Below, piece after piece: positions 48,080-49,431 of a stretch of DNA of 64,000 nucleotides. Position 1 is the stretch's first letter. Each line of letters starts with the position of its first letter. Source of the stretch: a virus (Duplodnaviria; Caudoviricetes); the IMG/VR virus record IMGVR_UViG_3300044675_007236; one strand, written 5' to 3'. Both the position numbers and the translations under genes were made by a program. Under the pieces are notes generated by a model. That model did not search any database. It saw only the letters and a program-made list of their open reading frames with translations, and was not told the origin of the DNA.

Positions 48080-48376
48080 TGTACACTTATTTCTATTTCA
48101 TAGTTACTACATAACTATATCAATAGGTGAACAGCCAAAATTTCGTGTATTATTATTAATGATACACCAACACCCACCATTAGCTTGGTCTATTTAAAGA
48201 CAGTTTTCTGATCTAAAAACAGGTTGTTTAGCGGCAGGTGCCTTTAGTGGTTTCGGTTTAGGCCTACCAAAGCTACCTATGCACCAAGTCTAATGCGACA
48301 GGGAGCCTGGTACGATCACGCGTGCGGAATATTTTGTTACTCTTGAAAAGAGTAATGAAATAGAAATAAGTGTACA
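48080..48376. repeat. 297-bp non-coding element with perfect 22-bp terminal inverted repeats
   Basis: TGTACACTTATTTCTATTTCAT (48080-48101) and ATGAAATAGAAATAAGTGTACA (48355-48376); internal hairpins. Confidence 0.9.
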
Positions 48377-48403
48377 TGTTTGTAGTGGACAGGCTAATGC
48401 TAA

Positions 48404-48703
48404 CTAGCTTTTGTACAGATTTTCTAATGTACTGGCAAAGACACAAACCTGAAGCCACTGTTCGTTGGTAACGTATGAGGCAAACGGATTTATCTCGTTT
48501 GCCATCAGCTGACCGGGTTTGACTAGGTTTGGGCTTTCAAGTGTTGGTGTAGCCTCGCCCAGCCTGTAACCTTGATCGTATAGCCACTGCTCGAATCTAG
48601 CCTCTATGTCGTTTATCCAGTAGCCGGGCTTAAACCGTGACGGTAAGTAACCCGGCTTGCGTGTTTTGACGACGTGCTGTGCTGTATCGGCGCTGACTCT
48701 CAT
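48404..48703 (-). CDS. hypothetical protein
   Basis: 99-aa ORF. Confidence 0.65.
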   Translation of the reverse strand: MRVSADTAQHVVKTRKPGYLPSRFKPGYWINDIEARFEQWLYDQGYRLGEATPTLESPNLVKPGQLMANEINPFASYVTNEQWLQVCVFASTLENLYKS

Positions 48704-48743
48704 AGCATCGCTTTCTAGGCCCCTGGGGCCTCGCTAGACGCAC

Positions 48744-49094
48744 TTAGCTTTTTTTTGGCTGTGACTGGGCGGTTTTTCGCTTCTGTGCGTCTAATCGCTT
48801 CCTAGCGGTCTGTACCTGGACCTCGTTACTTTCGTTTAGCTTGTGGCTTACGTTGAGCGAGTTCAAAAAGGCGCGAAGGGTCTGAATTGTGATTTGACCT
48901 AGGTTAGGGATAGCCAGTAGTTCTTCAACTGTTTTTGTTGTCAGATGCTTTACGGTGAGTATTCCGTGCAGCTCGAGAGTGTTTTGAGTTCGCAGAGCTA
49001 ACTGTGTTTCAGCTAGTGACACTTCTAGTACGTCTAGTTTGGGAATTCGATACGTTTGCTTTTTACGGGAAGCAGGCCCACCTACTATTTTCAT
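48744..49094 (-). CDS. stand-alone RNA polymerase alpha-CTD-like protein
   Basis: L..SLAE..L..RT.N.L...GI.TV..L.....EELLAIPNLG..TI..L...L. Confidence 0.85.
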   Translation of the reverse strand: MKIVGGPASRKKQTYRIPKLDVLEVSLAETQLALRTQNTLELHGILTVKHLTTKTVEELLAIPNLGQITIQTLRAFLNSLNVSHKLNESNEVQVQTARKRLDAQKRKTAQSQPKKS

Positions 49095-49095
49095 A

Positions 49096-49431
49096 TTAGC
49101 TCCTAAGTTTTGATTTAAATTGGTCGAAAGTGTCGTGAGCTCGCTCGAGAAGTTTATAAATATCCTCGACGTCTAAGTCCATTTCTGCGGCAACATCGGC
49201 AACGTCGGTAGATCCGAACAGCCCAACATCGTCGCACTCGGCTATGAATCTTGCAAATTGCACTAAGTCTACGCACCAGAGGGGTTGCCATACACTATCT
49301 GCCGGAATATGATCTGTTTCTTTTCTTTCTTTTTCTGTAAAGAAAGTCGCCTCATCGATTCCGGTCCAGCCGTGTTCGTTAGACCAAAATGTGTTTTCTT
49401 TCAGCTTATGCTGAATTACGTAGCTTGCCAT
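49096..49431 (-). CDS. hypothetical two-module protein
   Basis: FWSNEHGW....A.F.FT module followed by QFAR.I.E ... V...MDL module. Confidence 0.65.
   Translation of the reverse strand: MASYVIQHKLKENTFWSNEHGWTGIDEATFFTEKERKETDHIPADSVWQPLWCVDLVQFARFIAECDDVGLFGSTDVADVAAEMDLDVEDIYKLLERAHDTFDQFKSKLRS

Follow-up and report, generated by a model that had tools for sequence, protein, structure and literature searches.

The window, by which we mean the whole 64,000-nt stretch of DNA that was analysed, is part of a 175,160-bp IMG/VR virus record, and its own lineage is labelled WIN in the comparisons below. Essentially all of its genes lie on the minus strand. One operon encodes Dam, a protein which we call P0001, SbcD, SbcC and, further on, a helicase, and directly upstream of the P0001 gene there is a non-coding element (48080-48376) closed by inverted repeats. 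The features of this locus are as follows.

48355..48376, no strand: gene-distal closing arm, the 5' arm on the gene strand, complementary to 48080-48101
48337..48355, no strand: distal inner hairpin with an 8-bp stem and a 3-nt loop, abutting the distal arm (TTACTCTT/GAA/AAGAGTAA)
48169..48336, no strand: variable central region, poorly aligned in alignment A3; lineages are not alignable there
48136..48160, no strand: tract of AAT repeats, richer in AT than any other internal 25-nt window, overlapping the GTGTATTATT/AATGATACAC stem
48126..48148, minus strand: conserved internal motif, ACACGAAATTTTGGCTGTTCACC on the gene strand; subfamily consensus CGGAA-N2-6-TGGTTTT
48100..48118, no strand: proximal inner hairpin, ATAGTTA/CTACA/TAACTAT, with a 7-bp stem; the loop reads TGTAG on the gene strand and CTACA on the plus strand
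48080..48101, no strand: gene-proximal closing arm, ending 40 nt before the P0001 GTG start
47119..48039, minus strand: P0001, 306 aa, an orphan Zn-finger protein with a predicted Rep_1-like (HUH-type) fold, the element lying upstream

A preliminary description made from the letters alone had called this the largest intergenic gap; longer gaps between open reading frames of at least 90 aa occur elsewhere in the window (small genes may fill those).

Two genes close to the element were noted in passing. A 116-aa protein encoded at 48744-49094 (minus strand) matched the bacterial RNA polymerase alpha C-terminal domain (PF03118, E 6e-9) and could be a transcription-hijacking factor. Its gene is also kept in L004, L005-L008 and L010, again at a distance of two genes upstream of the element. 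Between Dam and this gene lies a 111-aa gene (49096-49431) which is 60% identical to its L004 counterpart with 82 gap positions, in a neighbourhood where the surrounding genes are 96-98% identical to L004. The mismatch may reflect a gap in the L004 scaffold, which contains 100 consecutive N, instead of replacement of the gene.

Sequence and folding of the element

An inverted-repeat search returned the two arms as exact reverse complements (100% over 22 nt, spacing 253 nt), in agreement with the preliminary description. Among the long-range perfect inverted repeats of the 175,160-bp record theirs is the longest, followed by one of 14 nt, which is the level of shuffled sequence. The hairpin proposed inside each arm was recovered at 48100-48118 and at 48337-48355, and so was the additional GTGTATTATT/AATGATACAC stem (near 48146-48168), which includes one G-T pair and lies in the most AT-rich internal tract. 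A search with the arm sequence allowing up to three mismatches found no site besides these two (shuffles expect 0 matches), and the internal motif also has a single occurrence in the genome. The ATAAGTGTACA-like end of the gene-proximal arm is kept in L004, L011, L012/L018 and L013.

Folding of the element was compared with shuffled sequences. As RNA the two strands gave z-scores of -6.2 and -7.6, and as single-stranded DNA they gave -6.2 and -6.1 with energies of -49 and -48 kcal/mol, so that both strands fold equally well as single-stranded DNA. An assembly artefact was ruled out because an independent contig from a DNA run on a different lake sample (X8) spans the element colinearly, running through both arms across 47623-49130.

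Scans for other known features returned little. Iterons were not found at the element, a tRNA/tmRNA scan gave nothing, and a scan for sigma-70 promoters and intrinsic terminators found none on the gene strand, with counts at shuffle level. Cumulative GC skew over the whole record was monotonic and showed no inflection at the element, which is a weak test because the genes are all on one strand. A DNA similarity search against GenBank phages gave no match, and a search with the internal motif gave 40 matches among which the real ones were only three loci already known. A reading of the arm core (TTATCC...) as a DnaA box was rejected by eye, the CACA half being missing in all lineages, and a TTGATAT match to the phiX174/pC194 nick region was dropped as it is not conserved in relatives.

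The neighbouring protein P0001

The P0001 gene had been taken to start at an ATG at 48054. The most likely start, judged from the sequence context, is instead the GTG at 48039, which has GGAGG 7 nt upstream; in the 93% identical relative L004 an ATA replaces the upstream ATG and the gene starts at the codon aligned to GTG 48039. With this start the distance from arm to gene becomes 40 nt rather than 25 nt.

P0001 has four close homologs and its family comprises about 40 representatives at 50% clustering. It had no match in Pfam, NCBIfam, PHROG or PADLOC, and a Pfam search with P0001 and 37 family members gave no match even at E = 1. A tblastn search with P0001 against GenBank phages found no relative, and one with P0049, its Gimesia relative, against PLSDB plasmids found no match.

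An AF2 model of P0001 was confident (pLDDT 92.8). Its best match by shape in the ESM Atlas was a cluster of 100% PF01446 (Rep_1), with TM scores of 0.54/0.52 over 234 residues, and further Atlas matches by shape and by language-model features were to Rep_1/Zn_Tnp_IS91 clusters. The named matches in BFVD were Microvirus replication initiators. Against the PDB the model matched the ferredoxin-like/palm fold, with the HUH Rep domains 9pqf and 2x3g at Z 6.1, which is not above the background of that fold. An hhalign comparison with pUB110 Rep was non-significant (probability 3.8%); the same alignment sets Y277 on the motif-III tyrosine and R305 on the C-terminal RL motif. A retron reading (msr-msd, a1/a2 repeats) was rejected, since P0001 has neither an RVT match nor a YxDD motif and its nearest folds are Rep_1.

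Across the P0001 family four cysteines are invariant (NCPPxGF...C...CPWCFVR), and a GPHxW motif, Q190, an HxGxQ/H strand and R305 are common to its members. The consensus HxGxQ/H stands in place of HUH. At position 277 a tyrosine occurs in WIN and L004 alone, the other relatives having F, M, L or a different residue, and among 37 sequences there was no invariant or near-invariant tyrosine. On the model P0001 is best described as a Rep_1-fold protein that has lost its nicking residue, the predicted relation to Rep_1 being at the level of fold only. Because the family has no conserved catalytic tyrosine and its HUH motif is degenerate, reduced to HxGxQ/H, P0001 probably binds rather than nicks, and the defining chemistry of a rolling-circle origin is unlikely here.

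P0001 is a fast-evolving protein; between WIN and L004, codon positions 1+2 of its gene are conserved no better than position 3. Its Zn-finger loop (47655-47716, residues ~113-133) occurs as two cassette alleles (...SMLFQCKNAK... and ...FPIFHCEHLR...). The strain in run X8 is a recombinant, since an L004-type loop is joined there to a window-type remainder of the gene and window-type arms. Covariation of the loop allele with arm sequence was considered and rejected on account of this X8 pairing; the hypervariable allele recombines independently of the arms, and there is no simple covariation between protein and arm.

Distribution of the element and its protein

An inverted-repeat-closed element of 240-405 nt was found upstream of P0001 homologs in nine lineages (WIN, L004, L005/L015, L010, L018, L060/L068, L064 and L070; the L016/L017 loci carry L005 sequence), large freshwater phages and two planctomycete genomes among them. 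The closing stem is 15-31 bp, a local hairpin abuts or overlaps each arm in every lineage (n = 9), and the element lies 25-60 nt upstream of the gene in most of them. In shuffled upstream regions repeats were never above 11 nt. The lineages compared with WIN were as follows.

L004: P0001 identity 93%; arms 22 nt, perfect; span 297
L005/L015 group: P0001 identity ~51-53%; 70-nt arms at 79%; span ~288
L010: P0001 identity 38%; arms 20 nt at 85%; span 288
L018: P0001 identity 38%; arms 31 nt, perfect; span 240
L060/L068 (Gimesia benthica chromosome): P0001 identity ~26%; arms 15+11 nt; span 277
L064 (202-kb contig): P0001 homolog distant; arms 13+17 nt; span 405
L070 (planctomycete genome): P0001 homolog distant; arms 31 nt, perfect; span 324

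According to the preliminary description, relatives without the repeats at the syntenic position would tell against it, and the relatives carry the repeats. It had also linked the element to the protein then annotated at 47119..48054, a link which the conserved co-occurrence together with the Rep_1-like fold now strongly supports, binding itself being putative. Among full-length family members on contigs that extend upstream of the gene, all but two have an equivalent element. The pairing of element and protein is not universal, because L019 is a family member without an inverted-repeat element; L069 has a weak 25/40 repeat only. The L019 gene, a 28% identical member on a 51.7-kb viral contig, abuts the preceding reading frame directly (region 2339-2520), and by eye the translation of that frame resembles a formylglycine-generating-enzyme (sulfatase-modifying) domain.

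In five further loci (L011, L012, L013, L014 and L063, one of them on a 43.6-kb scaffold) the assemblies end 47-136 nt upstream of the P0001 homolog, and the first base of L012 lies one base inside the 31-nt arm that is intact in L018. A de Bruijn assembler breaks at such a repeat, and the contig breaks presumably arise where the arms reach the assembler's k.

Searches for additional loci added little to this set. Single searches with P0001, P0006 and P0008 for related loci gave nothing new, a metagenome scan with alignment A2 gave nothing, and a scan of genome contigs with alignment A4 returned only the Gemmataceae locus L069. Eight weak planctomycete matches (E 1e-14 to 7e-6), confined to the Zn-finger region, had no repeat above chance and were treated as a different family.

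In Gimesia benthica CP043930 (~1.05 Mb; L060/L061/L062) the module sits among genes of 136, 545, 386 and 385 aa in whose products Pfam and PADLOC found no domains, and to its left an MmeI-type restriction-modification enzyme alternates with a GmrSD-type nuclease. Such a context suggests a mobile or defence island.

The distribution bears on one of the readings offered at the outset, a MITE-like element, or more broadly a selfish palindromic insertion that does nothing for the phage. The element has terminal inverted repeats that end TGT...ACA, and its size is typical of MITEs. It is nevertheless single-copy in the 175-kb record, an exact search of IMG/VR with the arms found no copies elsewhere, and the flanks (...GAAAG and TGTTT...) carry no target-site duplication, as had already been noticed. 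It further keeps the same syntenic position where the flanking protein is only 38-53% identical and again in planctomycete genomes, and its arms evolve by compensation. We regard this reading as already largely refuted and give it the least credence of all.

Covariation and constraint

In the alignable subfamily, double-sided compensatory change was seen at 11 of the 20 closing-stem positions. Paired cells numbered 113/120, compared with a mean of 95.6 when the 3' arms were permuted among lineages, and 5 of 2000 permutations attained the observed number. Between WIN and L004, three adjacent changes in one arm (TTC>CCG) are mirrored as GAA>CGG in the other. Judged from these alignments, arm sequence varies between lineages and it is the pairing that is the conserved, and apparently selected, feature. 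The arms are imperfect in L005, L015 and L010.

The inner hairpins were also retained. Each hairpin is the reverse complement of the other, loop and all, in five lineages. WIN and L004 have two hairpins unrelated to each other in sequence, and the difference between WIN and L004 in the distal hairpin is confined to the loop. The hairpins themselves seem to matter, and not merely as part of an extended repeat, because two sequence-unrelated hairpins are both kept in WIN and L004; the unrelated pair in WIN argues for folded single strands over two identical duplex operators. A TAG in the gene-proximal loop (CTA when the opposite strand is read) is common to the nine complete elements and L013, and is missing from L011.

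Conservation is concentrated towards the ends of the element. L005 and L015 show 17 differences, 15 of which fall in the central ~150 nt, while the arms, the hairpins and a 3' block common to the subfamily (AAT repeats followed by CGGAA-N2-6-TGGTTTT) are almost invariant. The columns of the internal motif are invariant or near-invariant in A3, and the motif is also found in L011 and L018. In 8 of 9 lineages the distance between the gene-proximal end and the AT-richest internal window is 81-115 nt. The WIN/L004 pair gives no power on constraint in the interior, because divergence of the element (94.9% identity) equals that at third codon positions (93-97%).

An invertible switch, that is, a promoter segment flipped by recombination between the 22-bp arms, was another of the original readings. 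Its geometry resembles that of known invertons, which have 20-30-bp inverted repeats around ~250 bp, and recombination between the arms would homogenise them and so mimic compensatory change. The interior (AAT tract and CGGAA...GGTTTT) is however in the same orientation in WIN, L004, L005, L015, L010, L018 and L011, and every assembly has the same orientation relative to the gene, a comparison of assembled contigs which a minority form could escape. Likewise at the level of contigs, the independent DNA contig is colinear and no inversion joints were reported. No tyrosine or serine recombinase was found among ten neighbouring proteins searched, and arms as imperfect as those of L005, L015 and L010 also speak against arm-to-arm exchange. 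We find an inverton hardly credible at this locus. Thus two of the four readings in the preliminary description, the MITE-like element and the invertible switch, are disfavoured, and two, an origin-like site and a structured RNA, survive.

RNA and regulatory alternatives

The element could instead act as a structured RNA. It would be transcribed together with the operon, on the gene (minus) strand, as a leader of the P0001 mRNA or as a ~250-nt RNA excised by RNase III, which would cut in the 22-31-bp closing stem as it does in rRNA processing stems or phage T7 intergenic sites; P0001 might be the protein that binds such an RNA. In favour of this reading, covariation maintains the closing stem as well as both hairpins, and the fold z-scores are -6.2 to -7.6. 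A perfect stem of at least 22 bp is the size of an RNase III substrate, and the closing stem matches it. Read-through transcription is to be expected, as the genes are co-oriented and no terminator precedes the element, and one contig from a metatranscriptome spans 48091-48241. Several single-sided substitutions turn a G-U pair into a Watson-Crick pair or the reverse on the gene strand (padded-sequence positions 108, 212 and 240 between WIN and L004, and the 3' arm of L015).

Other observations do not fit an RNA so well. The RNA contigs came from three metatranscriptomes and were sparse (depth ~2-4) over element and genes, with DNA carry-over possible, and over the element the depth (~2) was no deeper than over flanking genes, so that nothing suggests a stable, abundant RNA, although coverage this thin speaks neither for nor against one. 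No Rfam (15) family matched in the window at gathering score, and at E <=10 the matches in 47950-48500 were at chance level (E 0.95-1.9). In secure helices the wobble asymmetry amounts to two gene-strand events against one on the opposite strand, and minimum free energy is lower for the gene strand in 4 lineages and for the opposite one in 2. The mutual reverse-complement hairpins of five lineages place the same sequence on both DNA strands, which an RNA does not need, and the central region is unconserved. We know of no RNA role for the Rep_1 fold, the predicted fold of the partner protein. An RNA is in our view unlikely, although it is the strongest of the rival readings.

A duplex-DNA regulatory region was considered as well, in which the element would hold the promoter and operators of the P0001-SbcCD operon and its palindromes would be bound by a phage regulator; by analogy with plasmid Rep proteins at origins that overlap their own promoters, P0001 could repress itself. 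The position 25-60 nt upstream of the gene in most lineages would suit such a region, as would conserved ends around a variable centre and the AT-rich tract and conserved motif upstream of the gene, and the small hairpins are palindromes of 19-29 bp, the size of a dimer operator. Against this, a sigma-70-like promoter was not found on the gene strand, and the motif, being unique in the genome, is not a reiterated phage promoter. The two palindromes of WIN are unrelated in sequence, so the same dimer cannot bind both, and operators need no perfect long-range complementarity with 11/20 covarying positions. A regulatory region of this kind appears improbable to us.

A proposed origin-like site

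The reading that we prefer, to which we give a probability of roughly 45%, is that the element is an origin-like, structure-forming DNA site recognised in its folded form by a non-nicking, Rep-like protein. Since a hairpin-preserving non-coding locus with an AT-rich tract is fixed upstream of a gene with a Rep_1-like fold, the element is most simply taken as the cognate DNA site of P0001. It would be the cis-acting partner of the gene directly downstream, the two forming a two-part module of a structure-forming DNA locus and a Zn-finger protein within what appears to be the replication-recombination operon of the phage. Unwinding at the AT-rich tract would allow each strand to fold into a Y or T shape, in which the long closing stem bears one small hairpin at either inner end. 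P0001 would recognise the folded end, chiefly the gene-proximal hairpin with the adjacent CGGAA...GGTTTT motif, and would thereby mark the site for the phage's own helicase and recombination machinery, giving an origin-like site. Binding by P0001, the single-stranded state of the DNA and the role in replication are the parts of this scheme that we infer.

Rep_1 proteins belong to the HUH initiators, which attach to a 'bind' locus beside their gene, and the site where they act is exposed in an origin hairpin (PMC5714925). Evolution that preserves the hairpins would, by analogy, fit this type of action. We have to admit that arms ~250 nt apart extrude poorly from duplex DNA, so that extensive unwinding, or RNA, is needed, and that the compensatory change supports an RNA stem equally well; both points count against the origin-like site.

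Genes for an SbcCD-type nuclease lie 2-5 kb downstream of the element in the same operon, and the element might alternatively be a programmed hairpin site which this nuclease cuts to give a double-strand end for recombination-dependent replication. SbcCD cleaves DNA hairpins, PHROG 77 is named 'palindrome specific endonuclease', and SbcD-like (Metallophos) and SbcC-like genes follow P0001 in WIN, L010, L012 and L063. Palindromes sensitive to SbcCD normally have short spacers, however, and the arms here are ~250 nt apart, and the planctomycete copies have no SbcCD neighbours. We consider a programmed cleavage site very improbable.

Among known systems, the module would by analogy work most like the Rep-dso pair of the pC194/pUB110 plasmids. 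In both, a non-coding, hairpin-bearing locus lies directly upstream of the initiator gene, and P0001 has a predicted Rep_1-like fold with an N-terminal Cys-cluster. The two differ in that P0001 falls outside the Rep_1 family on sequence, on the HUH motif and on the catalytic tyrosine, and in that the replicon here, either a dsDNA phage with 175 kb or more or a bacterial chromosome, is no small plasmid. A long closing stem around ~250 nt is, to our knowledge, not a described dso feature.

A further comparison is with plasmid single-strand origins (ssoA/ssoU/ssoT) and with the filamentous-phage intergenic region. These are non-coding, 150-300 nt long and active as single-stranded DNA in folded form; they adjoin a rep gene or dso, and conserve structure better than sequence. 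The element is similarly non-coding, beside a Rep-like gene and conserved in structure over sequence. The sso functions on one strand only, and host RNA polymerase or primase, rather than Rep, recognises it (PMC5714925). The element, in contrast to the one-strand sso, is two-fold symmetric in most lineages.

The origin-binding domains of papillomavirus E1 and SV40 large T are HUH-type folds without a nicking tyrosine which bind inverted-repeat sites beside an AT-rich origin tract; they are fused to SF3 helicases, and their duplex pentanucleotide or palindromic sites are a few bp apart. P0001 would resemble them by analogy, as a tyrosine-less HUH fold at an inverted-repeat site with an AT-rich tract; neither a sequence match nor a specific structural match to them was obtained. 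In the oriV of RSF1010/R1162, two equivalent hairpin initiation signals (ssiA and ssiB) lie on opposite strands in a large inverted repeat beside an AT-rich region, are recognised by the replicon-encoded primase RepB', and are accompanied by iterons bound by RepC. The symmetric hairpins of the element on both strands beside its AT-rich tract are similar, but for the element and P0001 neither iterons nor a primase fold was found.

In AAV the T-shaped ITR is a terminal structure which measures 145 nt and lacks a long interior, its recognition by Rep68/78 uses structure and the hairpin tip, and AAV Rep has an active tyrosine and a helicase domain. The likeness, which is one of analogy only, lies in a closing stem with two small hairpins at its inner end and an HUH-fold partner. 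The element differs in not being terminal and in its long interior, and P0001 differs in having no conserved tyrosine. Rolling-hairpin replication is mentioned in the same source as above (PMC5714925).

A tyrosine-less, Zn-finger, Rep_1-fold protein paired with a Y-shaped, inverted-repeat-closed element may constitute a two-part module not described before, with structure-specific recognition without nicking and co-inheritance from large freshwater phages to planctomycete chromosomal elements. We advance this joint claim tentatively, as a possibility clearly short of even odds. If it is true, the module could be a new way of marking a phage replication origin or, if the partner is RNA, a new protein-nucleic-acid machine.

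Biological meaning

The element is real, conserved and covarying, it is tied to an undescribed protein family, and we take it to be a variant of the initiator-origin theme, with a putative function. Replication origins of large uncultured phages are almost unknown, and here comparative evidence alone defines a compact, testable pair of one 300-nt element and one 306-aa protein. The element is a practical marker for the module and presumably explains the recurrent assembly breaks at the locus, and the signature of these breaks could itself be used for finding the module. If the partner is RNA, this would be the first RNA role for a Rep_1 fold. Should P0001 bind the folded element and leave it uncut, bacterial viruses would have a counterpart to the tyrosine-less HUH-fold origin binders of eukaryotic DNA viruses, and the case would show how a rolling-circle initiator came to be re-used in a big dsDNA genome.
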